Virus record (IMG/VR): IMGVR_UViG_3300035190_000600
Coordinates: 1-44,028 of that record
Direction: 5' to 3' (one strand)
DNA from: a virus
Taxonomy: Duplodnaviria; Caudoviricetes
DNA: 44,028 nucleotides
Shown piece by piece: positions 2,629-39,839 of the stretch. The position numbers were made by a program, and so were the translations under genes. Positions within the stretch are counted from its first letter, which is position 1; every line of letters starts with the position of its first letter. A model generated the notes under the pieces. The model saw only the letters and a program-made list of their open reading frames with translations, had not been told where the DNA came from and did no database searches.

Positions 2629-3001
2629 TCCGACGCAGTTGACAATGGCGTGGATGAAGCGGCGGGGCTTCATTGCGCAAATTGTCGAGCGGTGGAATCC
2701 GTTTGCCAAAGTGCGGCAAGACCTGTTTCAGGTCATCGACATCGTCGCTGTAAACGAGCAAGGCGACTTGCTGGGCATTCAAGTAACGACACGCGCCAAC
2801 ATTAGCTCGCGCCGCGCTAAAGTGCGCGAGAGCTTAGGTGCTATGTACTGGGCAACGCACAACCAAGTTGAGGTTCATGGCTGGCAGAAGGTAGGCCCGC
2901 GCTGGACGGTCAAGGTTTGCGAGATGGAATACGACAAGTACAAAGCAATGTGGGTCGAGAAGGAGTTCGAGGGCGACACAAGCAAAAAAGCAGCGCAATG
3001 A
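2579..3001 (+). CDS. PD-(D/E)XK nuclease, Holliday junction resolvase-like
   Basis: RQDLFQVIDIVAV...LGIQVTT motif; about 140 aa; located in the replication module. Confidence 0.65.
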   Translation: MSNATKNKTTRKKTKISPTQLTMAWMKRRGFIAQIVERWNPFAKVRQDLFQVIDIVAVNEQGDLLGIQVTTRANISSRRAKVRESLGAMYWATHNQVEVHGWQKVGPRWTVKVCEMEYDKYKAMWVEKEFEGDTSKKAAQ

Positions 3002-4485
3002 AGTACTTGTCCGTGTGCAGCGGCATCGAAGCCGCAACTGTTGCTTGGCATCACCTGGGGTGGAAACCTGTGGGCTTTGCTGAGATCGAAAAATTTCCGC
3101 AACAAGTCTTGGCGCATCACTATCCCGATGTGCCGAATTTTCAAGATCTGACACAACATGACAAATGGCCTTTGGAACGTGGAGCAGTTGACCTTTTGGT
3201 CGGAGGAACCCCCTGCCAAGCATTCAGCATCGCAGGACTCCGGCGAGGAATGGATGACGAGCGTGGTCAACTCACCCTTGAGTTTGTCCGACTGGCTGCA
3301 CGCCTACGCCCGCGCTGGATCGTCTGGGAAAATGTCCCCGGTGTTCTGTCCAGCGGAGGAGGACGGGACTTTGGTTCCTTCCTCGGCGCGTTGGCTCAAC
3401 TCGGGTATGGGTTCGCCTACCGAGTGCTTGACGCTCAATACTTCGGAGTGGCCCAGCGACGCCGTCGTGTGTTCGTTGTCGGATACCTTGGAGACTGGCG
3501 TTGTGCCGCAGCGGTTCTTTTTGAGCGCGAAAGCCTGCGAGGGGATTCTTCGCCGCGCAGCAAAGCGCAACAAGAAACTTCCTCCAGCGCTCGAAGCGGC
3601 CTTGCGTCAAGTAGCGCAGATGTAGTTGGCGCAATTGATTGCAGGATCAACGCGCAGCGGGCACAAAATGCGGTAGCGGGTCATATGGTTGCAACCAAAT
3701 GCATGAACGCACGGCGGTTGGCTATCGACTCGTATGTGGAGGATGACATTGCATCTACAGTCGCTGCTCGAGACTTCAAGTCTGCTAGCGACCTGCATGT
3801 AACATGGCCGGCTGACGTTGTGCCGTGCATGAACGCGCAATTTGGCGACAAGTACGGGCAGGACAACCAGCACATTGACGACGGCGATGGATACTTTGTT
3901 GGGTTTAACGCACGACAAGATCCTGTGCAGTACGGCAACCAATCTGGCGCAGTTGATACTGACGGACACACGATGGCGGTGGCGCTCGGAACCGACTGCT
4001 ACAACGGAAGCGTGACTGGTGATGTTGCAGCGACAATGGGCACGCCAGGTTCGTCTGTGAACGCTTCGGGGCCAACGGTGATGGTGCAGCAGCCTTCTGT
4101 TACCCACACTCTGCGTGGCCGAGGATTTAATGCAAGCGAAGACGGGACTGGTCGAGGTACGCCGCTCGTGTCGCAGCCAAGTACAGTATTCCAAGACAGC
4201 CAATACGGCGTTGCAGAATACGATTCTGCTGGAACTTTGCGTGCTGGCAGAATTCCAGAACACCAAATGACAATTTCTCCAGCCATGCAGGTGCGTCGTC
4301 TCACGCCGGTAGAGTGCGAGCGCTTACAAGGCTTTCCAGACGGCTACACCGACATTCGGCCTCGTGGCAAAGATACGCCTGACGGCCCGCGCTACAAGGC
4401 GCTTGGCAACAGCATGGCCGTGCCCGTCATGCGCTGGATCGGGGAAAGGGTGAATTTGGTGGATTCACTCAAGCGCAGCCGATAA
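2998..4485 (+). CDS. C5 cytosine DNA methyltransferase with long modular variable region
   Basis: Motif I SVCSGIEA, IV GGTPCQAFS, VI WENVPG, VIII QRRRR, IX RRLTPVECERLQGFP, X ALGNSM; ATG at 2998 overlaps the upstream stop. Confidence 0.95.
   Translation: MKYLSVCSGIEAATVAWHHLGWKPVGFAEIEKFPQQVLAHHYPDVPNFQDLTQHDKWPLERGAVDLLVGGTPCQAFSIAGLRRGMDDERGQLTLEFVRLAARLRPRWIVWENVPGVLSSGGGRDFGSFLGALAQLGYGFAYRVLDAQYFGVAQRRRRVFVVGYLGDWRCAAAVLFERESLRGDSSPRSKAQQETSSSARSGLASSSADVVGAIDCRINAQRAQNAVAGHMVATKCMNARRLAIDSYVEDDIASTVAARDFKSASDLHVTWPADVVPCMNAQFGDKYGQDNQHIDDGDGYFVGFNARQDPVQYGNQSGAVDTDGHTMAVALGTDCYNGSVTGDVAATMGTPGSSVNASGPTVMVQQPSVTHTLRGRGFNASEDGTGRGTPLVSQPSTVFQDSQYGVAEYDSAGTLRAGRIPEHQMTISPAMQVRRLTPVECERLQGFPDGYTDIRPRGKDTPDGPRYKALGNSMAVPVMRWIGERVNLVDSLKRSR
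3158..3625 (+). CDS. Overlapping +1-frame ORF inside the methyltransferase gene, resembling the M.EcoHK31I beta polypeptide
   Basis: 155-aa open frame with SSARWLNSGM...SLSDTLET...FFLSAKACEGILRRAAKRNKKLPPALEAAL, matching my recollection of the EcoHK31I beta-type sequence. Confidence 0.7.
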   Translation: MTNGLWNVEQLTFWSEEPPAKHSASQDSGEEWMTSVVNSPLSLSDWLHAYARAGSSGKMSPVFCPAEEDGTLVPSSARWLNSGMGSPTECLTLNTSEWPSDAVVCSLSDTLETGVVPQRFFLSAKACEGILRRAAKRNKKLPPALEAALRQVAQM

Positions 4486-4537
4486 AAAGGCGATAAGTCG
4501 CCTAGGTGGGCGATCAACAACAACAAAAGGAGTGGAA

Positions 4538-4936
4538 ATGATCTTTCAAGCTGTAGTTCTGCTGTCTCTCGCTGCGGCTCCTGCCCATACCGAGCGGCAG
4601 TTCTTTGATGCCATTCGTCGCGTCGAAACCGGCGGTGTGGCAAACCAAGGCAAGGGCGCAGTTGGCGACAAGGGCGCGAGCATCGGCCCGTATCAAATTC
4701 AGCGTGCGTATTGGGAGGACGCACGCATGAAGGACGGCAGATATGAGGATTGCCTTGCCGACCATGTTTACAGCGAGCGCACGATGCGTGCTTACTTCCA
4801 ACGCTATGCACCCAAAGCTTTAGCTGCTGGCGACTGGGAGACGCTGGCTCGCATCCACAACGGTGGGCCGAAGGGTCACACCAAGAAAGCAACCCAAGCC
4901 TACTGGCTCAAGGTGAAGAAGGAGATGAGCAAGTGA
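4538..4936 (+). CDS. Secreted lysozyme, invertebrate (i-type/destabilase)-like
   Basis: Signal peptide; catalytic-type VETGG; GPYQIxxxYW; ARIHNGGP; terminal YWxKV; aaggag SD. Confidence 0.8.
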   Translation: MIFQAVVLLSLAAAPAHTERQFFDAIRRVETGGVANQGKGAVGDKGASIGPYQIQRAYWEDARMKDGRYEDCLADHVYSERTMRAYFQRYAPKALAAGDWETLARIHNGGPKGHTKKATQAYWLKVKKEMSK

Positions 4937-6709: not shown

Positions 6710-9700
6710 TTAGAAGTTGCGGAGCATGATCACTTCATCAACTGCTGCTTTTCTTGCCTTCTTCAACGCATCCTCAATAATCTTTCGATCTGCTTGAGTC
6801 GGGTTGTCGTAGTTAAGATTAGCGTACAGCAGATTGTCAGCAGCCATCGCGCCAGCATTTCGCGAAGCGGTGGCGTACTCTTCAGGTGTAAGAGTATAGC
6901 TTACGCCATCGCGTTCAGCCTTGCGAGGCAACGGGCGTGGACTAAGCTTGGTTTCTTGATCGCCAAAATCGCCGTTATCGCGCCGTTGATTAAAGCGCAT
7001 AATCAGCAAATCTAAGCGGTTAATGTCCGTGACTTCCTGACTAGTCGGGAAGAATCGCGTCAAACGGGCGGTGTAACTGCGTCCCATCTTTTCGATTGGC
7101 CTGCCCCACAAGTCGTATTTGATCGGCGGGTAGTTGTCTTTAGTCGGGAAAGCAACATACTCCATCGACTCTACCGCCGCCGTCCACGCAGATTTGCCCT
7201 CTTGCTCGTAAACGGTGTTCATGCGCTCATAGGGGTCGGCTGCTGACATCGTTCCTCGGACAAGCGCAGGTGTCATTGGTGTCAAGAAGAAGTTACGCGC
7301 CCACAGAGCAACATTGAGGCGATCCTTATCCTCTAGCATCTTCATTAGATCGCCAAAGGTCTGCAAGAAGGTCTTGTCCTGCAACTGCGCAGTAAAGCTA
7401 TCCCACAGCGTTTGCATGGCTTGCGTACCGCCGTCCGGCGCATTACCAACAGCCTTTTGGAAGGCGCGATATGCGTCTACAATGGTTGCAAGCGAAATTG
7501 CAAACGGCTCAACTCGAGAATAGCTGTAGTACGAGTCGCCAATACGCACCGAGTAAGGCGGCGCAACAGCTTTTTGCCGCAAGTAGTCAAGGTAGTCAAC
7601 TTCGCTGCTGCCGGTGATGACGGGGATATCGTCGTCATCGTCCATGTAGGAAATGACACCCATGATCAAAGACATCGCAACAACTGCGTTTGCGGAGTCT
7701 GTAATCATCTCGCCGCTTTTCACATAATTTTCTTTGATGCGTGAAGGCGCAAGCAAGCGGTACACCAGAACCAATGGGTGCGCAGGTGTTTCTAGACCAG
7801 CTTTAAAGATACCGCCCGGAGTTTTGATGTACGGCAGCAACATACTGCCCAATGGCAAAACGGGGAACAGGTCGTCTGTAAACTGACGCAGGTTCATTAA
7901 GGCGCGCACAATTGCACCTGGCGGCCCTTGGAAAACACCTAGCTTGGCGTTGTCGAGTGCCTCACTCCATACTGGGTTGCTGTAATCAATCAACCCGGCT
8001 TCAATGTGCGCCTCCAACGCTTCGCCGGTCAAACCATCATTGCGGCCTTCGCGATGCAAGATCGCAGAAGCTTCGCCGTGCGCCGCCATCGTTTTAAACA
8101 ACTCGTCAAAGGCAAGTAGTGTATTGAGCGAGGGGAAGCGCAGGATGCGACCAATCAAACCCGGCATTAGCAAGGTATGCTGCTGAATTTCTGCATCCGT
8201 TGAAGCATTTAAATCTGCTTCAAGAATCGGCATCTCCGTTGCGTAGGCCATCATAAAGTTGCGGCCCGCTCGGCCCATCGCCTTGAAATAGGCGGTCATG
8301 TAGGCTTTGAACTCGCCCATCGTTGCCGCATCAGGGTTTTTGGCAACGGTGTTAATTGATGCTTCGGCAAACAACCGCGACACACGCAAGAATTGGTTGG
8401 CTGTGTTGCCAGTCACGTTGGCGATGTGGGTTCCTAAACCCGACAACATCATCGCCATGCGGAACTCAATAAACAGTCGGCCAAACAAAGCCCCTGCGCT
8501 GCGGTCGGTCGGGTCAACTGACGCAAATTCCTTCGCCTCAATAACCTTGCGCGACATTCGATAGAAGTTGACCCATTCCTTGTTTTCAAGGTACGAGTAC
8601 ATCTGCTCCAAAGAGCCACCTGCCCGCTCTAGCCGTTCAATAGCGCGAGTGACAGCACGGGCTTGACGCAACTCAAGTTTTTGAATATCTGCTTTGAGGG
8701 CAGCAACCTTCTGGGGATTTAGGTTTTCTTTGCCTAGTTGTTTTTGCAGCTTGCGTAGCTTGCGGGCAACATCACGCGACGGGCCAAACACATGGGCTTG
8801 GAAGCGTTTGCGTGCAGACACAACATCGTCTTTAACGATGCGCAAGTTTGCTGACGCTAGTTTTCGCGCCTGCAAGTACTCGCGTTGAGCTTGAGTTGCC
8901 TCAACAAACTTTGCTTGCGTGTAGTTGTTAATAACTTTGTCAGCCAAGTCAGCGGCGATGCGGCCATAAGCAATGTGCTTCCAAGGCTCGTTTAGACCGC
9001 CAGTTTCCTGAATCTCTTTTTGCAGGTTGCGATATGTGCCTTCGTAATCAAGCTCTAACTGTTCGTTTGCGACAACGCGGGCTTGGCGGTCAAGCGCAAT
9101 GTCTTCAAACATTGCATCTGGATTTTCGCGCTGATACTCGCGCACAGCACGCAGGTAGGCTCGAGTACCAGGCTCCGCTGTCGGCATGGCAATGCCAATC
9201 GGAGTCTCACCGACCTTCGTACCTTCACCTTCAAGCTCGGCCTTTTTAGCTAAAGCTCTAATTTCTTTGTTTTCGTCTTTGCCAATTTCAGCAAGACGAA
9301 TCTTGTTGCGGCGAGCGCGTTCACGCAGCAACTGCATAGCTGCGCTTTCGACCTTTTGTTTAGAAGTTCTCGACTTAAAGCGTCCGAACACATCTCGAGG
9401 GGCTTCGCCCTCCGTGTAGCTCATCCGCAAGTCATCAGGCACTTCGTTGTATTCGGCTTCGTATGCGCCGTCAGCGTCGATTGCAGCCTCAGGCAACAAG
9501 GGCTTGATAAACGCTTCCGTAATCGTGCCGTCGATGCCATTGCCTAGTACCTCTTTAGCCAAGGTGTACTGGCTCGGAACCTTGTAGGTGTCAGGCAAGC
9601 TCATTAGACGCGCTAGGACGCGAGGCGATGCCTTCAGCACCGTCCCGTCCGGGATAATGATCCGAACGCGACCCTTGTTCGCGGTAAGCGTCGGAGCAAG

Positions 9701-12700
9701 CCCACCTGAGTTGGCGGCAGCAGGAGCGCCTGCGAAGGCACTACCGCCCATAGTGATAATCGGCTTATTAGGGTCAAGTCGGCCAGACGCAATCCATTTG
9801 TCGATGCGCATCTGCTCGTCAGGCCCAACGCCTTCCTTGTCAACCTCCAAGGTCGGCAGCAAATCTTGGATTGCCTCATACCAGTCACGAGGGCTTTTCT
9901 TCGGCGGCAACGGGGGCAACTCGCCTTCGCGCACGGCCTGCAAGATCATTCGCTTGCGGCTTTGCACCGCGCCGTAATCAGCGGCATCAACAACCAACAC
10001 GCGATGCTTGTAGCCGTTTTCTTTCAATGCCGTAAGGATCTTTTGGAACGGCGGGAAATCTACATAGGCAGGCACATTCTCAACCGATACCGCAGGCGGC
10101 AATGCACCAGCAATCAGCTCTGCGACCTTTTCTGCGCTTCGTACTTCTAGTTCCGTTGGCGCACGGTCGGCCTTAGCCGTCGAGAATTCTTTGCAAGACG
10201 GCGATGCATGGAACAAGTCGCAGTCAGCCTGCTTAAGCTCGTCTACGGTCAGTTCTTTAACTTCGCGAGCCTTGTATGAAGTGCCAAAGGCATTGTTGTA
10301 TGCCTCTACTTTGCGTGCATCGTTTTCTGCCGTCAGCGCACTTGTGATCGGCCCAAGTGCTGCCTCAACAGTACCCATGCCGCTAAACGCCGTTGCTACA
10401 CGAGGATCGTTGTAGCTAAACCGAACATCATTAGTTGTGTCTTGGAAACGCTGCGATAAAGGAATCAATTTCCCGTTGTCGTCGTAGGTGACAGGATCGG
10501 CTGATTTGATTTGAGACGAATCAAACGCAACTTGCTCGCCAGGTGCCGAAACTCCGTCATATCCATTTTCTTTTAAAATGCGCGTGATTGTTGACGCTTC
10601 TTTTTCCGTAGTAAAAAACGCATTTAAAAGCATTTGCCGATCTTCATTGTTGCTAGCTAGCATTGCAACTTCATCTCTAAATGCGTCTTGACTAAGCATT
10701 TTAGAGATCGGCACATACGGATTGTTTAACTTTAGATACACGCGCACAATGCGCGGTTTAGCTTCTTCTTTTGTAACAGGATTGATCCCGCCAAATTTGT
10801 TGTATCTAGCAGCCGAGCTTTGAGAATAAATCTTGGCTAGTTTTTCAGACCCAAAATAAAACCCTTTGCCGTATGCACCGGCATCAGTTTTTTCTCCAGC
10901 GTCTGCTTTAAACTCATTAAATTTAAAAGCAGTTCCATGACTTGTTTCAATTGTATAGCCGTTTGCCTGCGCTTCTTTGCGCACCATGCGTTGAGCCGTG
11001 TCCATGTCGCCGCTTTCCACAGCGGCAAGGTACGCAGCGTCAATTTCAGGCGTAGTTTGGTTGTAGCTGAACCGAATGTCGTCAGTTGCTTCGTTAAAAC
11101 GCTCAGACAGCGGGATAACGCGATTTTTTTGGCGAATAATTGCGTCAGCAGATTTAATCTGGGTAGGGTTAAAAACGACTTTTACATCATCTAATGGCCC
11201 ACCATCATATGTATTTTTAATAATTACGCTGTCGTAACCCTGCTCTTTTGCCTTTGCAATAATTTCGTAAAAGGTTTTTTCTCTGTATTTTTGACCTTGC
11301 TGATCGTGGATATACGGGTTTTGCATTTTTAGCAAAACATCGACAACTGCGCTGTCTACAACGCTTTCGTAGGTAATTTGCCCTAAAGTTTCATTAACAA
11401 TAGAACGCGCTTGCTCAACTGCATCTACAATTTCGGTTTCATTAACGAAGTCATCAGCTCTGAACTCTGCGTCATCTAATAATCGTTCGACATATTTAAT
11501 TGTCGAATCCAAATAATCTTCAGGATTAGATTCATCCCATGATTGTGGAGCGAATGCGCTGTTGCCTAATTCTCTAACAAAATCTAACTCTCTTGACGCT
11601 CCTTTTGGAATTAACTTTAAAAGTGGCTGAACAATAGCTTCAGCCGTTTCAGCAATACCAGATGCGTTATCAGCATTAAGTGTTTTTAATCCATAGTTTT
11701 TAGCTGTTTTTTTTGATGCAAAAAAGAACCCAAGTTTTGCGCTAGCAGCTTTTGTGTTTTGCCCCAACAAATTAGGGTCAAATGAATAATTAACAAGTTC
11801 GCCTAAGGCCAACCCATGACTGCCTTTTTCTGTATAACCACTTGCCTTTGCCGCTTCATCTACCATCCGCTGCGCAGTATCTAGGTCACCGCGCTCAACA
11901 GCATCTAGGTACGCAGCGTCAATCTCAGGCGTAATTTTGTTGTTGTAGCTAAACCTCGGCAAGTCGCCTTCTTCGCGTTCAGCCTGCGCCTTGATGCGTT
12001 CCTTCATCAGTCGCTTGGTTTCATCTCGGCGCATTTCCTCCGCAGACCGACGACGAACCAGCGCCTTAAAGCGCGGGTCGGTCATATCGACCGTAATAGG
12101 CTCTCCGGCCCACTTGATGCGCGTCCACCAATTGCGAACGCCTTGACGCTCTAGAATGGCAACGCGAGCAGCCTCCGACCGCGTAATCGGAATAATCATC
12201 ACGCGCTGTTCTGTACCTGAGCCAGTAGCTGCGACAACCTTTGACACACCCTTTTCGCCAAAGATTACGAGGTCACCTACCTCTAGCTGCCCAGGCACCG
12301 TGCGGCCCCGGCTCACCGTGGGCAACTCTGTTTCCCTCCGAGCTTGCCGTTCTGCGGCCTCTTGCTGCTCCTCTTCGGCTTTGCGGTCAGCAGCGGCTTT
12401 TGCGGCAGCGGCTTCTTGCTGCTGCGCAGCTAGCCTGCCTGCGGCGGCTTTGGCAGCAGCCTCCTTGGCCTCAGCTTCTTGCCGTTGCTTTTGAGCAAGC
12501 ACTTCAGCGGCCTTCTTTTGTGCCTCTTGTGCAGCACGCTCGCGTTCAGCAGCAGCAGCTCGCTCACGGCCAAGTCGATCTTGCGTAATACGAATGGCTT
12601 CAAGAGCGGTCTCTAGCACCTGAGCATCCGTAGCCTCATTGCCTAAAAACTCTCGCGCTGCTTCCAACGCTGCATCTTCGTTGGCTCCAGCCTTGTACAC

Positions 12701-15700
12701 GGCGTTTAGCAACGCCTTAGCTTGCCCAGTCGGGTTGTCGCTCTTAACTTGCTTAAAGCGGCGTTGGTATTGTTCCTCTTGAGCCTTGCGCTTTGCTTCT
12801 GCTTTCTCCGCTTCTTTAGCTGCTTTTGTTTTGGCAGCTTCCTGTCTAGCCTTTAGCGCATCTGCGGCTCTTTGCTTTTCTTTGGTGGCAACATCTGCCT
12901 TCTTTTGCGCTTCTTCTTCCTTGCGCTTTTTGTCTGCTGTTTCCTTCGCAACTTCTTTTTCAAGTTGCTTGTACGCAACCGCCCAAATTGCGTCAGTTAA
13001 CTCTTTACGCTCGACTTCCGTAGCTTCAGCAGGCACAAGCGGTGCAATTGCGGCATCAAGCTCAATTGCAGACTTTGCGTTAGCAACCGCTTCAACTAGC
13101 GGCCAGTCTGCGCTGTCTTTTTTAATACGAGCAATGCGGGTGCGAGCGGTATCGACAACTTTGACACGGGCTTTTTCTTTTTGCGCAGCTTCTTTCTCAG
13201 CGCGAGATTTTTGATCCGTTTCTAGTTTAACTCGAGCAGCTTCAGCAGCAGCAGCGCGTTGAGCCTCCGCTTCCTTGCGTGTTTTAATTTCACCTAAAGT
13301 GCGACCTAGGAAGGCTTGTGCTTGCCGTTCCTGCCCAGACATCTGCATCTTAGCCGCAGATTCAATTGCAGTCAGGCCGCGCATAAGGGTCTGCGCAATG
13401 AACAGTCGCTCATTAACGCTTAGGCTTTCCTGCATAGCTTTGTCAGCTAAGGCAGGCAAGCGAGCTAGGGCTGCGCGTTCTTTGTCGCTAATCGATGTGT
13501 AGTCAAAGCCAACGCGGCGCAGTTGTACGCGCACCCAATCAACTAGTCGCTTTAAAAAACCTGCGTCGGCTTGAGCCAACTCGCTAACCAACTTTGGATC
13601 GGCTTCAAGCGCATCCATAGTCGCGCTAAACCAATCAGAAATTAGACTACCAGTTTCATCTGTAATTGCGTTTGCGTTGTTTTTAATCCATTTAGCCAAT
13701 GCCGCAGGATCGTCTTTAATTGCAGCCGTGCGGCTTGCAATAAAACGGCGGCGTGCAGCATTCCACAATTCGCCTTTTGCGGCTTTAATTGTAGCCATAA
13801 TGCTTTCCCATTCGGCTTTGTTGTTTTTAAACAAGCCGTGGAAGGTTTCATGCCGAGCAACGCGCTTAAGAATTGCTTCGTTGCTTAGTCGAGCGTTAAG
13901 ATAAATGCGGTTTGTTGTGCCATCGTATGCTCCTTCAAGGTTGACATCTTTGCCGTAGTCAACAAATGTGACCTCATAGCCAAGGTCGTTGAGTCGTCGT
14001 TCGGCGTTTTGCTGTTCAACGTTACGCGGCAAGACGGCGCGAACATCCTTAGGATTGATGGTCGCCAAGTCATCCATGTTCTTAGCTTTTGTCAGCTTGC
14101 GAACATGGTCATCCAAATCTCGCTGCGCCGTTGCATCTAGCACTCGCGTTTGCCCAGCAGCAACCGCTGCATCAAACGCTTCTAACTCGCCTGCTAGCGT
14201 CGCTGCGGCACGAGCCTCGCCATACGGGCCAGCCATGCGCTCTTTCTCGCGCACACCTTCTGTGGCTTCAATAGACTTTGCCTGCTCTAACAACAGTTCC
14301 TGCTGCTTGCGCAAACGCTCGACTTCGGCGCGTTTTGCAACAATTTCAGGCGTTGCAACTACAGGCACAGTAGTTGTCGTAGGTTCTGTCGCAGTTGACT
14401 CTACCGGCGCAGCCTCTGCTTCCGGTGCTGCTGTTTCTGTAGTTGGTACAACGGCTTCAGCCGATGCTGTTTCGCCTGCAATCTCTTCCAAGACAGGCGG
14501 CTTTGCATCGGCAGGCAGTTCTACTTCGCCTGGAATTGCAGGTTTAGCAGTATCGACCGTCTCAGTCGCTGTTGTCTCTGCGGCAGCAGCGGCTTCCAAG
14601 CTTTGTAGCTCTGCCTCGTTTTGCGCCAAAAGCTCTGCAACGCCTTTGACCTTTTCGTCAAACGCACGAACTCGCGCACCGGCTTCAGCATCACGAGCAG
14701 CGGCAAGTGCGGCAGCCTCAGCTTCCTCTTCGGCCTTAAGGCGACGGTCGCCTAGTTCAGCGTCAATCTGCTGGTTTTCTTTGTTAGACGCATAAGCAGA
14801 GATTGTCGCACCCGGCCCAGCACCAAGCGCACCTTGGTACAGCACTTCGCCAAAATCATATTCCTTGCGGTAGCCAATGGTCTTTTCCGCAACCTGTTGC
14901 AACTGAGCCGAGCCACCTTCTTGGATTGCTTCCTCAAAGCCTTCCCACGCAGCTAGCTCTGCAATCTCACGAGCCGTCATGCGACGCAAGGCTTCGCCGC
15001 CCATCTTCATAGAAGCTGTAGCAAGACGCTTGGCCGCAGAACCGATACCCATCGGAATACCTTCAAGGCTTCCAATAAATAGACCGGCCTTGTACGCATC
15101 TTCGGCTTGCTCTGGGGTTGCGCCCATAGCCAACGCCTCGTCGTACATCTGCGCACCCATGCTGAAAGAACCAACAACAGCGGTAGTGCCAACGCTACCA
15201 GCCAAACCGCCTGCAATCACTCCAGCAGGGCCAGCCGTTGCCCCGCCAACTGCCGCACCTGCTGTCATGCCGAGTTGGCCCAAACCAAAGAAAGCACCAG
15301 CAGAGCCAAACGCGCCAGAGACATCGCCTGAAATTGAGTTAGCTAGGCCAGGTTCGCCTGGCAACGTTTCACGCACCCATTCTTTGGCGGCTCGCATCAC
15401 GTCATCGACTTGCGAGTCTTTGCCGTAGTCGTCAGCCATTGCCATGCCTTGAATGGCACTTAACGGCACATCTGCAGCACTACGAAGAAAGCTCTGTCCC
15501 ATGTTGGACAGATAATCCATCGTGCTAAACTCAATCTCGCCGCCAGTTTGCAGGAAATCAAAGTTCGGCAAGTATACGGGAGTGCCGGGTGTTTCTGGCT
15601 CCTGTGTTGGCGCAGCAACAGCAGCTTGGGCTGAAGATGCGCCCGATTTAATTACTAAGTTTCCAGCAGCAAGATCGTCAAACAAGCTTTGATACTCGCC

Positions 15701-15792: not shown

Positions 15793-17646
15793 TTATTCTT
15801 GTTTAGCGAACTGAGGGTTCTTAATCCACTTGCCGTTAGGAAGTCCAAGCACATTGTCGGTTTGCAAAAACCGCACATCATAGCCGCTTTCAACTAGCAG
15901 CAAGTACATAGCCGCACTAGCCGCTGCTTTTTCTTTGCCAGCAAATGCTTTGCCTGTTTTTGGATCTAACAGTTCTTTGTCAACCAATAGCTTTTTGATT
16001 TTGGTTTGAAGCTCTGGGTTAGCTTTAGGAACTGCAAAACCAGCATCATTTTCAAGGAAGTTTTCCTTAGGAATGTCTTGTGCTGACTTAATTGCGCTTG
16101 ATTCCGTTTTGTCAGTCTTCAACACTACTGTCGGAGCTTGCTTGGCCGCAGGTTGCGCAGGAGTTGCGGGTTTGGCAGCAGACGGCGTTGCCGCAGGTTG
16201 CGCAGTTGCTTGCCCACTACGACTAGCTTCAAACGCTTGCTGTTGCTGCACAATAGCCGCTTCGTCGTCTGCACGATATTGCTGTGCAAGGTTTTTGATA
16301 AAATCTTGTGGAGTAATTGTCGGAGGTGTCAACGTTTTTTGACCGTTCTCGTCAACAACTTCTTGCCGACCAAGTGCGCGTGCCTTACTTGCGTCATCTA
16401 AATTTTCAAATGTTTTTGAAGCCATCTGCACATATTCTGACGGAAGCTTTAGCTTGGGCGCAGCGGCCCTCAATTCTAGCGCAGCACGAGCTTCGATAGC
16501 GTCCGTCTTTGCTTTGTTATAGGTATCTACTTCAATTTGTCTGTTTTTAAACGCTTCTTCAAAGCCTACGGCAGGCGCAACAAACTCAGTCCCATCTGTT
16601 AGTTTTCGCGCAACCAACCCCTTTGCTGCATTGTCCATTGCAGTATCAAGTTCCTTGCCTTCAACTCCCGCCTTAAGCAAGTTTTGCGCATACACGGTTG
16701 CTTGCGTCACATTGGGGTTGTTGGTCTGACGACCCATTTCACGGGTTTGCGCAAGACGCAACGCAGCCGATTGATAGTTGTCAGCCTTAATGTTTTGCTG
16801 CGCCACTCCGTCAAGGATGGATTGCTCCATTTTGCGCAAATCGGCAAGCGCGGCTCGAGGATCTTGCGATGCCTCAAGAAGTTGCTGAATCTTAGCAGCA
16901 ATTTGCGGGTCGTTGACTGGTTGACCAAAGTTGTCTTCAGGCGTGTATGCGCCAGCAGCCATGCGATCTGCAACGCTTGACGCAAAAGCCATCCGGCCTG
17001 AGGAATCCAAGTCCTGCAACGCACGGCCTCGCGCCCACTCTCTAAACTTAGTTTGCTGTTCGCCAGACAAGCCTTGCGCAAGCTTTTCAGCAGCAGTTAA
17101 ACGATCTTCATACTGTTGCGCTAAAGCCTGCTCTTGGGGCGACAATCGCGGCCCCAAAATCAACTGCGCTTCAGAAAGCTTTGAAAAAGTTTGAGCTACA
17201 GTAGGGATCTTGCCAAACGGCGTATTTACTGATGCTCCCGTTGCTTTGGCTGCGCCCGACAAAGTTGAGTATGTTTTAGCTTCTCCAGCATACCGACCTA
17301 ATGCGCCTTGTTGCGCTTGAGTAACCTGTGTGCCCATACCCTCAATTGCGGTTTGTTCAGCGGCTACCTTGCTTCCTAAATCGCGCTGACCCAATTCATA
17401 GTTATGTTCATCAATTGCACGCTTTTCCTGCCCTGCTGCTCGAGCGTCTGCGTTTTGTGCAAGAGTAAGTCGATCCTGTTCTACTTGTTTCCTTCCCTCT
17501 TCCAATGCCATGCGCAATTGCATTTCTTGCTCTGCAAGATCTACTTTGCGCTTTTCAAAACCTAGCTGCATACCTTGGCTAAGGCCAGCAGCAATACCAG
17601 CCATTGCATTGTTGATGCCGCTGTTAGGACGAATGATTAGTGCCAT
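15793..17646 (-). CDS. Internal virion/ejection protein
   Basis: Ala/Gln-rich helical 617 aa; sits between the pilot protein and the giant protein. Confidence 0.65.
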   Translation of the reverse strand: MALIIRPNSGINNAMAGIAAGLSQGMQLGFEKRKVDLAEQEMQLRMALEEGRKQVEQDRLTLAQNADARAAGQEKRAIDEHNYELGQRDLGSKVAAEQTAIEGMGTQVTQAQQGALGRYAGEAKTYSTLSGAAKATGASVNTPFGKIPTVAQTFSKLSEAQLILGPRLSPQEQALAQQYEDRLTAAEKLAQGLSGEQQTKFREWARGRALQDLDSSGRMAFASSVADRMAAGAYTPEDNFGQPVNDPQIAAKIQQLLEASQDPRAALADLRKMEQSILDGVAQQNIKADNYQSAALRLAQTREMGRQTNNPNVTQATVYAQNLLKAGVEGKELDTAMDNAAKGLVARKLTDGTEFVAPAVGFEEAFKNRQIEVDTYNKAKTDAIEARAALELRAAAPKLKLPSEYVQMASKTFENLDDASKARALGRQEVVDENGQKTLTPPTITPQDFIKNLAQQYRADDEAAIVQQQQAFEASRSGQATAQPAATPSAAKPATPAQPAAKQAPTVVLKTDKTESSAIKSAQDIPKENFLENDAGFAVPKANPELQTKIKKLLVDKELLDPKTGKAFAGKEKAAASAAMYLLLVESGYDVRFLQTDNVLGLPNGKWIKNPQFAKQE

Positions 17647-17671: not shown

Positions 17672-18319
17672 TTAGCCAGCCTTAGCTTTGTCTTTTCCGT
17701 ATGTCATTCCATACCCCAACAGCGCACCGCCGATTTGACCTAGGCCAGCCGTCCATGCGTTCGGATCTTGGAACTGAATGTTCGCAGTTGCACCAGCTTG
17801 TGCGCCAAGCAACGCCGTGTTCGCGCCTGCGTAGTTCTGGTAGAAGCCCGACATCGCGCCATACGCGCCCGCTTCTGCTGCTGCCTGCGCTTGTGCTAGT
17901 TGCCCTTTCATACCAGCAACCGACTCGTCAATACCCATCAGCGTGCGGCTAAGGTCGCTGCTAATGCCGCGTTGTGCGTTATCAAACGCAGTCGTGTTGT
18001 ACAAACCGCGCTGGGTCATGGACTGCTGCATTGCGCTGCCCATTTGCTTGGACTGATCGTATGCGCCTTGCTTGGCCGACTTGCCGTACATATCGGCAAA
18101 CTTATTGGCCTTTTCAAAACCCTTTTGCAGCGTGGGCAACACCATTGCTTGCTGCTGACGAGCCGCGCCGTAAAGCCAATCTTGATCCTTTTTGGCTTGG
18201 CCGTACAGCTTCATCATGTTCTTCATTTGCTTTTTTGCAGGGTCGTTGCTGCTGCCAAGCAAACCACCCAAAATGCTGCCACCAGCACTAATTAAACCTG
18301 CTCCAATAATCGGATCCAT
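17672..18319 (-). CDS. DNA pilot/ejection protein (P22 gp7-like)
   Basis: MDPIIGAGLISAGGSILGGLLG N-terminus, Gln/Ala-rich core, Gly-rich hydrophobic C-terminus. Confidence 0.7.
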   Translation of the reverse strand: MDPIIGAGLISAGGSILGGLLGSSNDPAKKQMKNMMKLYGQAKKDQDWLYGAARQQQAMVLPTLQKGFEKANKFADMYGKSAKQGAYDQSKQMGSAMQQSMTQRGLYNTTAFDNAQRGISSDLSRTLMGIDESVAGMKGQLAQAQAAAEAGAYGAMSGFYQNYAGANTALLGAQAGATANIQFQDPNAWTAGLGQIGGALLGYGMTYGKDKAKAG

Positions 18320-33013: not shown

Positions 33014-33405
33014 GATAGCTGCGGCAAGATGGTTACCACCTTGTTCACATATAAGAATGTCCAGTCTTGCGCACCCTGCGATGCCAATTTGAACTCCAAG
33101 CGATAGGTATGTCCACCAATTAATGAAATACCTAGGCCTAAGGCAGTTACTTCAAGTCGGTGCTTAAAGTTCCAACCAAGTGCGTCCTGCGACCAACCGT
33201 ATGTAGTTTGCAGCGAATTTGAAATGACCTGTCCAATCGGCAGCGCGGCTACGGTATAGACTGCGGTGGTTGACTGCGTGGACAGGTCATATACCTTGAG
33301 TTGGATGCTAGCAATGTCGCCCATAACAATAGGCTGTTGCTGCGGGTTAACAACGCGAGCAAGCGTAAAAATATCTTCGTTTTGATTTTGCGTTGCGACG
33401 ATCAT
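33010..33405 (-). CDS. Hypothetical virion-associated beta-sandwich protein
   Basis: 131 aa, coupled to both neighbours. Confidence 0.65.
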   Translation of the reverse strand: MIVATQNQNEDIFTLARVVNPQQQPIVMGDIASIQLKVYDLSTQSTTAVYTVAALPIGQVISNSLQTTYGWSQDALGWNFKHRLEVTALGLGISLIGGHTYRLEFKLASQGAQDWTFLYVNKVVTILPQLS

Positions 33406-34265
33406 TGCACAACTCCGCTGCCGTAGACTTGGCGACCGACAAGAATTTGACCTTTAAACGGCAACTCAGTTACATCCGGCGCATCGCTAATGATGTACAG
33501 CGTTACAGAATCTTCGCCCTCGTTAGGCGGCGAGTCTGTATCGCGGCAAGTAGCGCGAATCGTGTGCGTGCCTGGTAACAAACCATTAAGCACAAAGGTC
33601 TGACCCTCATACAGCACGCCGGTAGTGGTATTGCTATACCACTTGATGCTGCTGGTCAAATCGCCATCAACCGTGTCAACTGCCGTAGCGTTAAACTTAA
33701 CAGCAGAACCTGCGGGATATGATGTTCCCGTTTCAGGCGACAAAATTGTCACCGTAGGTGGCGTAGCAACATTGGTTACCGTTACTGTTACGGTGTCAGT
33801 TGAGGTGTTCGGCGGGTTGCTAAATGTTGCCGTAATTGTGTGTACACCTACAGCCAAATCTGTCAGCGTTGCCCCTGCGCCAGTAAACAAATCACCAGTA
33901 AGACTGCTAGTCCACACAACAGTTGCGGCAGACGCAGGATTACCATCTAGCGTGCAACTTGCTTCTAGCGTTACGACATCGCCTGTGTCTACAGAAATTG
34001 GTGCGGCAGGCGAGGTAATTGTTACAACAGGCACAGCAGCAAGCGGCACAGGCTCTACTTGCGTGACATACCACCACGGAATAGTCACCGTGCCAGATAC
34101 GCCCACAACCGGCACTTCGCCCGTAGGCGGCGCGGCATCAGGCGAGTTAGTAATCTCGCGGTTAGTACCACCTACATCGCGAACATTTAGACGATTGTTG
34201 ACATTGGGCGCGATGTTGACCATCGACCCACCGCTAGTGCGCACGCGAAAGCGTGTAAAAGGCAC
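33402..34265 (-). CDS. Ig-like domain virion protein (two tandem domains)
   Basis: Repeats P.VTI.SP...V...A...DG...WxS....L..GxHTIxAT. Confidence 0.8.
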   Translation of the reverse strand: MPFTRFRVRTSGGSMVNIAPNVNNRLNVRDVGGTNREITNSPDAAPPTGEVPVVGVSGTVTIPWWYVTQVEPVPLAAVPVVTITSPAAPISVDTGDVVTLEASCTLDGNPASAATVVWTSSLTGDLFTGAGATLTDLAVGVHTITATFSNPPNTSTDTVTVTVTNVATPPTVTILSPETGTSYPAGSAVKFNATAVDTVDGDLTSSIKWYSNTTTGVLYEGQTFVLNGLLPGTHTIRATCRDTDSPPNEGEDSVTLYIISDAPDVTELPFKGQILVGRQVYGSGVVQ

Positions 34266-35566
34266 TAGTTAAGTACCTCCCAAATGGCGGCGTGCAAAGT
34301 GATGTACTCGTTAACAGCAGCAGCAGTTGCGTTGCTAAATCCCATTTCAACGCGAATCTTTTTAGATGCGTCTGCGTTAGTCGTGTTAATTGTTGAAGGC
34401 GAAAAGAATCCAGCAGCCAAATAGTTGCCCATGGCAATACCTGCACCGCCAAAGTCACGCAGTTGCGCAAGTTCTAGTGCGCCGTAATAACCGCTGTTTG
34501 TTGCGCCGTCACCAAAAAACACAAGTGTGCCTTTCACAACAAACTCGTAAATTGTGCCAATTGTTAAAGTGCTTGCTGATTGAATGTTCTGCATCAGCAA
34601 CGCAGGCCCACTAGCACTATCAAGATAAAATTGAATATTTAAATTTCTAGCAACGGCATTACATTTTGCACCGCCAATTAAAGTAAAACGAACAACTTTG
34701 CCGTTTAATGCGCCTGTAGATGTTCCGCTTGGATCCTTAACTTTTGCGCAGTCTGGCAGCGTGTTAAAAGCAAAATTGCTAGTTGTTGTAGTTGGAATAG
34801 TAAAATTAGCAAATGGCTGCGTGGTGCTATTTACTGGCAACACAGGCACAGTTGCAGATGTCAACTTGTACCCAGCAGTATCCGCTGGTGCAGGGCAATC
34901 TACTTGAACAACCCTTGCTCGCTCCGCCCAAGCAGCAGTTCCATTAGATCCAGCGGCAGTTGCATTGCTTTTTAAAACGCGACTGCTAATGCCAAATCCC
35001 AAAAAACCTTGACGATTTGCTAGATCAGCAATACGGTCTTGGCTAAACGATCCGGTTGCAATAGCCGTCGCGTCTAAAGCACCGCCAGAAGTAGCTCCAA
35101 GATGCGCGTGTTGCGCATTTGTAAAGCCAGTTGAACTAATTGTCGGCGTAGTCAGCGTTTTATTGTCAAGTGTTTGCGTGCCGGTAGTGCCAACCGCAAT
35201 GCCGTTGCCTTGAACATATACATTGCCGCTGCCTTTAGCTTGTACACGCAAGTCAGCGTCAGTTGCGCTGCTAACCGCACTAACAATTGCACCGTTTCCA
35301 GCCGCCTGCGTAGTCAGCTTGACTGCATCGTAATCCGAAGTCGTGCCCGTAGAAGCAAGGTCAAGCACCCGCGCAGGCGTAGCACCTACAGCCAACAGCC
35401 GCGACGCTACCGTAGTCGGGTCTAGCGTCTTATCCACCAAAGTCTGCGCACCAGAGGTGTACACCACGGTACTCGGCAAATGCGCCGTACCTACCGTGTC
35501 ACCAGCCACAAACTCTCGGATCTCGTTCGGGCCAGTCGTCAGCTTTAGCGGGATTTTGTCAGCCAT
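34265..35566 (-). CDS. Tail fibre-like protein
   Basis: QTLVDKTL and QTLDNKTLTTPTI fibre motifs; Ala/Thr/Gly-rich. Confidence 0.65.
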   Translation of the reverse strand: MADKIPLKLTTGPNEIREFVAGDTVGTAHLPSTVVYTSGAQTLVDKTLDPTTVASRLLAVGATPARVLDLASTGTTSDYDAVKLTTQAAGNGAIVSAVSSATDADLRVQAKGSGNVYVQGNGIAVGTTGTQTLDNKTLTTPTISSTGFTNAQHAHLGATSGGALDATAIATGSFSQDRIADLANRQGFLGFGISSRVLKSNATAAGSNGTAAWAERARVVQVDCPAPADTAGYKLTSATVPVLPVNSTTQPFANFTIPTTTTSNFAFNTLPDCAKVKDPSGTSTGALNGKVVRFTLIGGAKCNAVARNLNIQFYLDSASGPALLMQNIQSASTLTIGTIYEFVVKGTLVFFGDGATNSGYYGALELAQLRDFGGAGIAMGNYLAAGFFSPSTINTTNADASKKIRVEMGFSNATAAAVNEYITLHAAIWEVLN

Positions 35567-35572
35567 AGTTTG

Positions 35573-37129
35573 TTACTGAACAGAACTTCCGGCCAAGGTT
35601 AGGCTTACTGAGTTTTGGCGTCCACTTAAAGCGTTAGACATCCAAGTAAACACGCGCTCGGTGTTTGCATTCGTCCAGCTAGCATCAAACGTGTCAAATG
35701 CCACCATGTGGTTCATGTTGGTCATTTGCAATGCAGTTTGTAGGGCAGCGTACTGTTGAACGTCGTGCGGATCGGTGTACGGTTTAGCAGCAACACGCTC
35801 AACAATAATGTTGGTCATGTCACCGGCCCATTGACGAGGGTAAATCACAAAGTTGATGCTAGTTGCAGTAGTTGAACCGCGTTGCATACAAGTCGCAAGC
35901 TCAATACTTGTGCTGTCTACTTTGCGAACGACATGATAAGCACCAGCACCCTGGCCCGCCGTGTCAGGACTTAGCATGGCGTTAGTGCCAGCCGTAATCC
36001 AAACGACATCACCTTCACGCCAGACATAGCTTGACAAAGTTGCGCTAGTAAGCACATATCCAGCCCCGCTGGAAGACGCGCCAGTAACAGCAACACTCGG
36101 AGCAGACAAAGGCGTAGTTAGCGTAATGCTGTTTGCTCCAACGCCAGACAACGTGTACACGCCGCCAACAGCAACTTTTTCAACAACGCCGATTGGAAAG
36201 TTTGCACCTGAGTTAGAAAACGACTCTGTGTGCGAATAAATACGCACTTTGTCGCCAGCAACAAACGACGAGAATGCGCCGGTTTTAGACAAAACACCGG
36301 TAGAGGCGGTATAAGACACGCCGCTAATCATGGACGGAGTGTTGCCCATGACGCACATAGTCGGCACGGCCCACTCTGTTTGCTTGGTTTCGTAATAAGC
36401 TAAAATGCTAGCAGCGGCTCGCACATTTGCCGGAATGTTGGTCGCTTGCGCAGCAGCCATTCGGCCAAACACTTGCTGGAATTGGAATCCAGACGTGTTG
36501 TATTGCTCTGTACCTGCCCCATCCTTGCGGAAATCAATCGGGGTAGCAATGGCAACAACTCCAAGAACGCGGCTGTCTACACCACCGGCAAAGCTGTAGT
36601 CAGTACCGTATGTGTCCAAGGTGGTTTTGTTCGTATTGCTTAGAGGGGCCGTCAATTGACTCCACCAAGCCATCGTGGCTCCAGCACTAAGGCCAACCAA
36701 AATAATCTTGTTGGGGTCAATGCCCAAAGTTGACGCACGCGCCTTAATTGACACAATTGCCAATTTCATGTCGTTAAACGATTCAGGAAAGAACGCAGGC
36801 CGCGTAATCGGCTCGTTATATCCGAATGTTGCTGCCGCAGTCGGCGTATCCCACACCGTTTGGCGCGTTTCAATGCTGATTACGTCAAAATGCGGATCGC
36901 TAGGCGCGATGCGGCTTAAGCACAACGTTGCAATGTTGTTGCTTTGGTCTTGATTGTTTTTAGACACGGCTCGTTTGTCACCTGTAGCCCAGCCACCAGG
37001 GTGACGCACAATAATGCACGGGTTACCGCCAGGATCGCGCACCGGGTGACGGTACACGTCAAAACGCTGGTGAAATTCCGGCCCGTAAGGCAGGTCGATG
37101 TAGTTGGCAGTCGGGGTTAAAGCGGCCAT
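35573..37129 (-). CDS. Alpha/beta-hydrolase (carboxylesterase-like) with inserted beta-rich repeats
   Basis: HPGGW oxyanion loop, GLSAG nucleophile elbow, GIDPNKIIL, late DPH His; Y.P...Q.FDVY N-terminus. Confidence 0.85.
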   Translation of the reverse strand: MAALTPTANYIDLPYGPEFHQRFDVYRHPVRDPGGNPCIIVRHPGGWATGDKRAVSKNNQDQSNNIATLCLSRIAPSDPHFDVISIETRQTVWDTPTAAATFGYNEPITRPAFFPESFNDMKLAIVSIKARASTLGIDPNKIILVGLSAGATMAWWSQLTAPLSNTNKTTLDTYGTDYSFAGGVDSRVLGVVAIATPIDFRKDGAGTEQYNTSGFQFQQVFGRMAAAQATNIPANVRAAASILAYYETKQTEWAVPTMCVMGNTPSMISGVSYTASTGVLSKTGAFSSFVAGDKVRIYSHTESFSNSGANFPIGVVEKVAVGGVYTLSGVGANSITLTTPLSAPSVAVTGASSSGAGYVLTSATLSSYVWREGDVVWITAGTNAMLSPDTAGQGAGAYHVVRKVDSTSIELATCMQRGSTTATSINFVIYPRQWAGDMTNIIVERVAAKPYTDPHDVQQYAALQTALQMTNMNHMVAFDTFDASWTNANTERVFTWMSNALSGRQNSVSLTLAGSSVQ

Positions 37130-39023: not shown

Positions 39024-39839
39024 TCATACTTGCACCACCATAGCGTTGCCCTTGCGCATTGCACCCTTAGCACGTAGGCCTACGATGCAACCCACAGGGT
39101 CCACCGTTCTATCGTCGTGCAAGTCGCCGTCTACCACCGGCAATCCAAGGTAGGTTGTGGGCAATGGCTGTCCGGCCTTGGTACTAAACACCACAGCCAC
39201 CGTATAGCCGCGCTGGCAAGCGTCTAGGATTTCCCATTCCTTAGTGTTCTCATGGCGCGACAGCACATGAACGCATGCGAAACGCGCGGCGTGTTCTTTC
39301 TCCACAGCGTCCAAAGTAAACCTACGATGCTGTTCCCATTTCTTAGTGTACTCATAGAAACGCAAATCGGCATCGCCGGACAATGCACGGCGCAAGTCTA
39401 GTCGCGTGCTGTCCCAAGGTAGATCCGATGTGCCGTTTAAACGCACTAGTACTTTGGGTGTTCGACTGTTCGACCGCTTCCACGATCGGACAATATCGCA
39501 AGCTTCTGCGATTAGCGCATCTTGGAAAGCTTGCCGGTCTTCCAAGTACCATTTGGAGCGGCGTAGCATTGCCCTTTGAGCGTTTCCGTTGGGCATTGCC
39601 AAATGGCCACTAGTGTCCCCTAAACACCCCGCTAGGCAAGCTTCCGTAGCTTTCGGACAGAATACGCCCGGCTTCAAGTACAGCACTAGGCTAATATCGG
39701 CTAGACCAAGCTTCACGGATTTCTGGGTCTTAGTAGATACCGACCACAGGCACGATTTGCCCATATCGGCCGGGTTTACATTGTCGACCATTGCCAGCGC
39801 ATTGCCGCGCATTACTTCCAAGCTTGCCATTGTTGCCAC
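39024..39839 (-). CDS. GP88-family protein (Cys-cluster, radical-SAM-like); start may be ATG 39830
   Basis: CPKATEACLAGCL, RLNGTSD, FYEYTK, VAVVF, VVDGDxHDxR, IVGLRAKG. Confidence 0.8.
   Translation of the reverse strand: MATMASLEVMRGNALAMVDNVNPADMGKSCLWSVSTKTQKSVKLGLADISLVLYLKPGVFCPKATEACLAGCLGDTSGHLAMPNGNAQRAMLRRSKWYLEDRQAFQDALIAEACDIVRSWKRSNSRTPKVLVRLNGTSDLPWDSTRLDLRRALSGDADLRFYEYTKKWEQHRRFTLDAVEKEHAARFACVHVLSRHENTKEWEILDACQRGYTVAVVFSTKAGQPLPTTYLGLPVVDGDLHDDRTVDPVGCIVGLRAKGAMRKGNAMVVQV

Follow-up and report, generated by a model that had tools for sequence, protein, structure and literature searches.

A C5 cytosine methyltransferase cassette within a predicted phage ejection protein

Does a phage carry a cytosine methylase into its host together with its own DNA? 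The question is raised by one gene of the virus record IMGVR_UViG_3300035190_000600 (Caudoviricetes), a complete genome of 44,028 bases with direct terminal repeats, the whole of which we refer to as the window. The record is matched in lake and freshwater metagenomes, where 14 DNA runs contain at least half of the sampled words and 3 of the 14 are possible sources. Its minus strand bears a podovirus-like late operon encoding a terminase, an SU10-like portal (a weak match), an adaptor, the major head protein and a 1455-amino-acid (aa) structural protein of the tail; three short open reading frames (ORFs) follow, and the operon ends with ORFs of 215, 617 and 3025 aa. An original prediction, made without database searches, held that the largest of these is a virion ejection protein with a complete C5 DNA methyltransferase built into it. 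We find that the methyltransferase is borne out by profile and model, while the ejection role is predicted from homology, gene order and cysteine suppression.

The methyltransferase domain and its catalytic residues

The translation of 9428-10411 on the minus strand is open, and all of the C5 methyltransferase motifs listed in the original prediction are present in the order given there. Against the Pfam profile PF00145, aa 1801-2093 of the giant align with positions 7-318 of 324 (E 8.1e-22, 78.5-82.5 bits at a cut-off of 22), and AlphaFold2 returns the methyltransferase fold with a mean predicted local distance difference test score (pLDDT) of 89.1 and a predicted template modelling score (pTM) of 0.87. 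The extent first proposed for the domain, aa 1793-2120, is too long at its end: the fold stops at about aa 2098-2101, and the last 19 residues of the proposed stretch have pLDDT values below 50. A Foldseek search with the model gives M.HhaI as the best match (E 3e-16, TM 0.68); phmmer aligns the domain with M.HhaI over residues 8-293, target-recognition region included (E 4e-8), and a profile built from 30 homologs matches M.HhaI at E 1e-20. The score against the NCBIfam dcm family (TIGR00675), 64.7 bits, lies below the cut-off of 100.65. Judged by profile and structural model, aa 1795-2098 of the 3025-aa ORF is a complete C5 DNA methyltransferase domain. It resembles the M.HhaI family (PF00145) in fold, motif order and catalytic-residue equivalents, but differs in that SP[V/S]C replaces Pro-Cys and in that the domain is embedded in a predicted virion protein. 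The original prediction mentioned neither the two ART-PolyVal domains ahead of the methylase nor a second, stand-alone C5 methylase gene at 2917-4485.

Conservation was assessed in an alignment of the best 120 of 649 large homologs, five rows of which are near-identical strains, and in a search without a length filter, which gave 2620 matches and from which the best 150 representatives were used for counts. The catalytic Cys of motif IV, the Glu-Asn of motif VI and the Arg-x-Arg of motif VIII are invariant in 120/120 aligned homologs; among the best 150 representatives, the first Arg is present in all 150, and gaps account for the 3 rows without the Cys (147 have it) and the 1 row without the Glu (149 have it). 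The motifs that bind S-adenosylmethionine (SAM), I and X, are kept in the domain, and by alignment the equivalents of M.HhaI Cys81, Glu119, Arg163, Arg165 and Asn304 are all present. Motif IV reads SPSC here, with Ser where Pro normally precedes the catalytic Cys, so that the usual Pro-Cys pair is missing; SPVC is the norm of the clade, with Val before the Cys in 115 of the 120 aligned homologs and in 134 of the 150 representatives. Since the Pro is absent, we file the domain as a clade-level variant rather than as a canonical C5 member. In the sister clade of gut prophages the domain is under purifying selection, with a median ratio of nonsynonymous to synonymous substitution rates (dN/dS) of 0.057; the sample comprised 52 unique sequences taken at 54 loci and compared in 1304 pairs, which are not independent.

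The phage C5-carboxymethyltransferase CmoX has the same fold and is likewise phage-encoded, and 8yf3 is among the matches; according to the available text of PMC12783734, CmoX needs SPPC together with an Arg at the position of HhaI Asn304. The window domain has SPSC and Asn instead and is thus not a CmoX, and no CmoA match was found among the 38 ORFs scanned. Given the Asn in motif X where CmoX needs Arg, ordinary SAM is the expected donor. From the conserved residues, we think that the domain is quite probably catalytically active on DNA.

The giant as a predicted ejection protein

The giant is the last and largest member of a small, medium and giant triad that follows the tail genes, as expected of a gp16-type protein, and it lies on the same strand as, and downstream of, the terminase, portal, adaptor and major head genes, which is a feature of polyvalent proteins. 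Small/medium/giant ejection operons are described for T7-like phages and Schitoviridae in the available text of PMC11445570, which also treats Cys suppression as a conserved feature across ejection operons. In the triad of the window, the Cys counts are 0, 0 and 2 for the 215-, 617- and 3025-aa products, and both Cys lie inside the methylase; the remaining 3549 aa of the triad contain none, compared to 43 expected from the 1.21% Cys content of 21 other ORFs of the window (P ~1e-19). The same pattern extends to homologs: in 110 proteins of at least 1000 aa, Cys makes up 0.145% of the residues outside the domain, while the domain itself has exactly one Cys in 88 of the 110, and this is the sole Cys of the whole protein in 29. 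At 32 loci examined, the carrier has at most three Cys in 29, and two Cys-free ORFs stand directly upstream in 13.

The C-terminus provides the homology. A tblastn search with the last 616 aa found 5 records in total, at 21-26% identity, including the "internal virion protein D" (a depositor annotation) of Desulfovibrio phage ProddE (E 1e-12) and Pelagibacter phage HTVC041P (E 5e-5); the internal virion proteins B, C and D of ProddE, with 205, 646 and 1268 aa, form a series like the triad here. The C-terminus is also LPD38-like, with an ESM Atlas score of 0.96 to LPD38 clusters at a recognition value of 1912, below the tool's mark of 2300, and no LPD38 Pfam match in the 3025-aa protein. Two PF18760 (ART-PolyVal) domains score above cut-off, so that the giant joins at least two unrelated activities, ART-PolyVal and C5 methylase, in the manner of a polyvalent protein. 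General family searches returned no family for the 617-aa ORF, and the Atlas was likewise uninformative. Proteins of related make-up have been found in particles: in the accessible parts of the respective reports, an LPD38 plus metallopeptidase giant is recorded from purified phi24B virions (bioRxiv 10.64898/2026.04.10.717836), and JC1 virions contain a 196/510/4515-aa triad, the last member being a DarB-like protein (PMC9144972). We consider it very likely, from gene order, composition and C-terminal homology, that the giant is packaged and ejected with the phage DNA.

Like the polyvalent proteins set out in the text of PMC5512222, the protein here is a giant of unrelated enzymes with ART-PolyVal domains, an HExxH motif and an LPD38-like C-terminus, in a portal-terminase phage and with predicted co-injection; unlike them, it carries a C5-cytosine enzyme and no helicase, whereas their methylase is an N6-adenine enzyme, for the most part monophyletic, that is nearly always fused with an SF2 helicase and LPD36. 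The text of that paper discusses no C5 enzyme ("cytosine" occurs once, in a reference title), and its figures and supplements, which list 131 domains, may include one. P1 DarB and the giants of Bcep22-like podoviruses (JC1 gp69) are, as far as the consulted sections describe them, similar in being virion-borne giants with a DNA methylase, and JC1 has the same triad; there an adenine methylase is combined with SNF2, whereas the C5 methylase stands alone here. The DarB-type dyad (an NPPY/F N6-adenine methylase with an SF2/SNF2 helicase and LPD36) gave no Pfam, PHROG or NCBIfam match in the 3025-aa protein.

In gp16-type proteins of T7, the cargo is a lytic domain. With the T7 gp14/gp15/gp16 and N4/DEV operons, as they are described in the available text, the window shares the order of the triad, its size classes, Cys suppression and internal virion protein D homology. 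The cargo differs: an RNA polymerase in the N4/DEV ejection operon (PMC11445570, in the part available), two ART-PolyVal domains and a C5 methylase here.

According to the original prediction, this C5 arrangement is not known to have been characterized. Our literature searches, which had most subscription papers outside their coverage, agree in that they found no paper on an ejection or polyvalent protein with a built-in C5 methylase, and the available text of PMC7824862, PMC13434306, PMC11879866, PMC12810830 and PMC12707154 contains no C5 cargo; the arrangement is nonetheless no singularity, as it recurs in 649 proteins.

Distribution and exchange of the cassette

These 649 carriers of the methylase domain are 1663-5294 aa long, which makes the domain a recurring cassette of the known polyvalent class, and neither an isolated case nor a novel type of system. 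The SP[V/S]C clade resides mostly in giants (110 of the best 150 representatives have at least 1000 aa), the SPVC domain occurs in many unrelated scaffolds, and the few stand-alone SPVC enzymes have 2-6 Cys. At 67 of 80 viral loci the domain lies in frames of at least 1000 aa; closely related gut prophages make up 50 of these 80 loci. Twelve bacterial genomes contain the domain, and one of the twelve is the complete chromosome of Segatella copri HDE04, where it sits in a prophage, in a 3352-codon frame with one Cys. A cultured phage with the fused form was not evident among the best 40 of 48 and the best 15 of 49 records, all of which are 22-31% identical. Parts of the gene, the domain among them, are covered by contigs from the RNA libraries of four river runs, although contigs cannot show transcription. 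We regard the arrangement as a real, widespread and apparently undescribed variant of the phage polyvalent-protein class; it adds a cargo to the polyvalent-protein catalogue and explains the database label "DNA-cytosine methylase" on such giants.

Shorter carriers of 438-978 aa also occur (L005, L007, L009, L013, L016, L023-L025 and L030), with a C-terminal SPVC methylase and 1-2 Cys; judged by size and order alone, the genes that they immediately precede are terminase- and portal-like, and they are possibly a second class of injected protein. At L006 (2697-4991), a 463-aa Cys-free ORF stops four codons into the methylase, which continues in the same frame; this may be read-through, a split gene or a sequence error, and L006 was excluded from alignment A2.

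Several features mark the domain as a cassette. The first ART-PolyVal domain, the second and the methylase lie between R[F/M]SY linkers, which are found at aa 1278, 1572, 1789 and 2121, and the joints between cassettes carry DNA repeats that are 72% identical. In near-identical strains the ART-PolyVal cassettes differ, while the methylase is kept at 99-100%; the first ART-PolyVal cassette differs in P0003, P0005 and P0006 and is replaced in a contig of run X4. The ART-PolyVal part (10424-11944) is the hypervariable one, differing between strains that are 95-99% identical elsewhere. In two relatives, G001 and G002, with a terminase 93% identical to that of the window, the scaffold is only 35-43% identical, and the slot is occupied in both by another C5 methylase, which has canonical SPPC and is 30% identical to the window cassette; the slot thus kept a C5 methylase across the swap. 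Over the head, portal and terminase as a whole, identity to G001 and G002 is 93-95%, whereas the gp15-like protein and the giant reach only 30-43%, which means that this pair has been exchanged or evolves far faster.

Other cargo is found on the same scaffold. The C-terminal scaffold is shared by 19 proteins, 10 of which have the C5 domain, and a DarB-type N6-methylase with helicase is present on it in P0258 and P0265; ddrB-ParB, Zeta, GP88 and sigma-70 domains occur on it in others. Sigma-70 region 2 is internal scaffold cargo in L129 (3-5999), L130 (4772-11773), L132 (4307-11776, with region 4 as well) and P0264; in an ejection scaffold, this would amount to a sigma factor delivered by the virion. 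In the window, GP88 (PF17338) has a gene of its own at 39024-39839 on the minus strand, and in relatives it is a cassette inside the giant scaffold (P0257 aa 1409-1658; L133); the only three Cys of P0257 form a CxxxxxCxxxC cluster within GP88. DNA-level and single-protein scans for the scaffold gave no matches.

We considered whether the methylase might be set free from the giant. Release by cleavage at R[F/Y/M]S linkers finds no general basis, as a linker precedes the domain in only 30/120 homologs and follows it in 22/120; a recombination or linker repeat is more likely than a general processing site. An internal start yielding a free enzyme was also rejected, as no in-frame ATG shortly ahead of motif I is accompanied by a ribosome-binding site. 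A promoter scan showed no excess (3 found, 7.6 expected). Rejected likewise was an origin of the cassette from the stand-alone methylase of the same genome, to which it is only 29% identical over 105 aa and from which a long branch separates it in a FastTree tree of 56 rows (every third of the remaining representatives). That stand-alone methylase has a long variable middle, is 96% identical in G001 and is not found in G002 by tblastn; contigs of the river RNA libraries show variant forms of it.

Proposed role and its alternatives

We lean towards a reading in which an exchangeable C5 cassette, part of a predicted gp16-like ejection protein, is delivered with the phage DNA, methylates the entering genome and blunts restriction. 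The giant would be packed in the head and would exit with the two smaller proteins to build a channel; its cassette would then reach the host cytoplasm, where SAM is present and where the phage DNA arrives. Using host SAM, it would place 5-methylcytosine (5mC) on the entering genome at sites of host restriction enzymes, and would thereby blunt host restriction ahead of the expression of any phage gene. If the protein is ejected and active, its target is probably the phage DNA, with an anti-restriction payoff. Even for P1 DarB, whose particle-borne methylase is tied to a helicase, methylation of the entering DNA is a possible rather than an established mechanism. The cassette described here is a compact, helicase-free domain of 305 residues with one essential Cys and an easily read product, and Segatella copri HDE04, a cultured gut commensal, carries it in a prophage, which makes virion-delivered methylation directly testable.

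With regard to the target, alignment A2 shows that lake phages and prophages of gut Bacteroidota have the target-recognition region in common, a hint of a short target or of relaxed specificity. Phage C5 methylases of relaxed specificity are on record in the available text of PMC5537653, and the cassette may be of this kind. More tentatively, and with considerable doubt, the whole SP[V/S]C clade could consist of dedicated virion-delivered 5mC writers, in lakes and in gut Segatella prophages alike, which would methylate the genome at a short, host-independent site during entry, from the cytoplasmic end of a gp16-like channel. If true, the phage would receive an epigenetic coat from the SP[V/S]C enzyme just as its DNA enters the cell.

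A number of observations weigh against delivery of a protective methylase. The giant has no sequence match to T7 gp16 or to any other solved ejection protein in the PDB. Replacement of the Pro by Ser or Val before the catalytic Cys may lower activity; in M.EcoRII, Pro-to-Ser or Pro-to-Ala at this position slows the enzyme without killing its activity. Short, apparently stand-alone members of the clade exist (16 of the best 150 have fewer than 400 aa, some being fragments), and the cassette is missing in 14/16 scaffold loci examined (4 of the 14 are truncated on their 5' side; a short match, L136, was left out of the count), so that the scaffold can do without it. For P1 Dar, the standing hypothesis in the available text of PMC12707154 is physical obstruction rather than methylation.

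The site composition of the window cuts both ways. The window avoids ACGT (32 seen, 320 expected), CASTG (1, 51 expected) and GGWCC (3, 40 expected), many 6-mer palindromes are at or near zero, and G001 and G002, with the other cassette, avoid the same sites. Such heavy avoidance of restriction-type sites suggests that the host likely restricts; a general shield would make it needless, and since it persists, any shield must be partial. When 25 loci that have the cassette were compared with 14 scaffold loci that lack it, no 2- to 5-mer differed after Bonferroni correction for 690 tests; the best, CCGG, has p 1.2e-4, and the two groups of loci differ in GC. GGWCC was rejected as the target, as it is low in 22/25 cassette loci but also in 8/14 scaffold loci without the cassette (p 0.18). 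CG is not depleted in the window (observed/expected 1.13), and the context of C/T polymorphisms in 20 related stretches, mostly coding DNA of ~80% identity, gave no target signal. The sites avoided in common by the window, G001 and G002 also include GRCGYC and RGCGCY, and this set could help to identify the host by its restriction enzymes.

The position of the gene in the late operon means that the giant would be made in bulk during DNA packaging, in a producing cell where SAM is available. It could therefore methylate progeny DNA before or during packaging, in which case the virion DNA would already contain 5mC and injection of the enzyme would be incidental. A stand-alone gene would be simpler for this purpose, and the genome already has one; furthermore, the purging of non-catalytic Cys from the domain is what is expected for a part that crosses the envelope, and the neighbouring ART-PolyVal cassettes are injected-type, host-directed effectors (PMC5512222, in its available text). 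We thus think late action unlikely.

The enzyme might also act on host or competitor DNA, re-marking the chromosome (with effects on expression or on modification-dependent nucleases), depleting SAM or binding restriction complexes. The wide conservation of the target-recognition region fits a host-independent short target, and strong site avoidance does persist in carriers. Only a few copies per particle would enter, however, if the usual stoichiometry of ejection proteins applies; many carriers are gut prophages, for which chromosome damage at entry would be costly, and P1 Dar acts only in cis (PMC12707154, in its available text). A host target is improbable in our judgement.

A quite unlikely alternative is that methyl transfer by the cassette is weak or absent, and that the SP[V/S]C motif marks a change to a clamp or shield on entering DNA, by DNA binding or base flipping and comparable to the obstruction proposed for Dar, or to another chemistry. 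The Pro before the catalytic Cys is replaced throughout the clade, the k-mer and polymorphism-context tests show no methylation footprint, and DNMT2 tRNA methylases are also among the Foldseek fold matches. On the other hand, motif I, the Asn of motif X and all catalytic residues are kept, a canonical SPPC enzyme fills the same slot in close relatives, and the Asn excludes carboxymethyl transfer; the best full-length matches of the 30-homolog profile are DNA methylases, with DNMT2 aligned by sequence over the N-terminal half only.

Finally, a fusion that is a mere passenger, or an artefact of assembly or annotation, has a negligible probability: although the window was assembled from a metagenome and none of the contig pieces listed for four runs spans the whole gene, the artefact is already refuted by independent near-identical proteins of 3016-3022 aa, by the viral loci with the domain in long frames and by contigs of runs X4 and X10 that span 6710-11116, across the domain and both flanks, and a passenger is at odds with the low dN/dS of the sister clade.

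Table 1. Features of the giant gene, its operon partners and the second methylase in the window.
Feature	Position	Strand	Basis
Polyvalent, gp16-like (internal virion protein D-like) predicted ejection protein, 3025 aa	6710..15787	-	ORF, domains, Cys count, C-terminal homology
C5 DNA methyltransferase cassette (predicted), aa 1795-2098; SPSC variant; catalytic Cys1865 at 10193-10195	9494..10405	-	Profile, alignment, model
First ART-PolyVal cassette, aa 1282-1571	11075..11944	-	PF18760, two stretches
Second ART-PolyVal cassette, aa 1576-1788	10424..11062	-	PF18760, best stretch aa 1609-1764, protein E 3e-12
Linker repeat of 57 nt that encodes ...RFSYN, directly ahead of the methylase; a further copy, 72% identical, lies at 11060-11116	10409..10465		
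HExxH (HETFH, aa 646-650), zincin-like metallopeptidase motif	13838..13852	-	Kept in consensus of 12 scaffold rows; no Pfam match
LPD38-like C-terminal scaffold region, aa 2170-3025	6713..9280	-	ESM Atlas features, tblastn
617-aa Cys-free ORF, gp15-like by position	15793..17646	-	Family searches and Atlas gave no family
215-aa Cys-free ORF, hydrophobic N-terminus, gp14-like by position	17672..18319	-	
Separate stand-alone C5 methyltransferase, GTPC motif	2917..4485	+	PF00145, E 9e-54

Among the other genes of the window, a destabilase-family (i-type lysozyme-like) gene at 4532-4936 (E 1e-11) lies among the plus-strand genes, outside the late operon. Upstream of the terminase, at 33402-37129 on the minus strand, are an Ig-like structural protein and an alpha/beta-hydrolase esterase; an esterase is present on the phi24B capsid, according to the available text of bioRxiv 10.64898/2026.04.10.717836.

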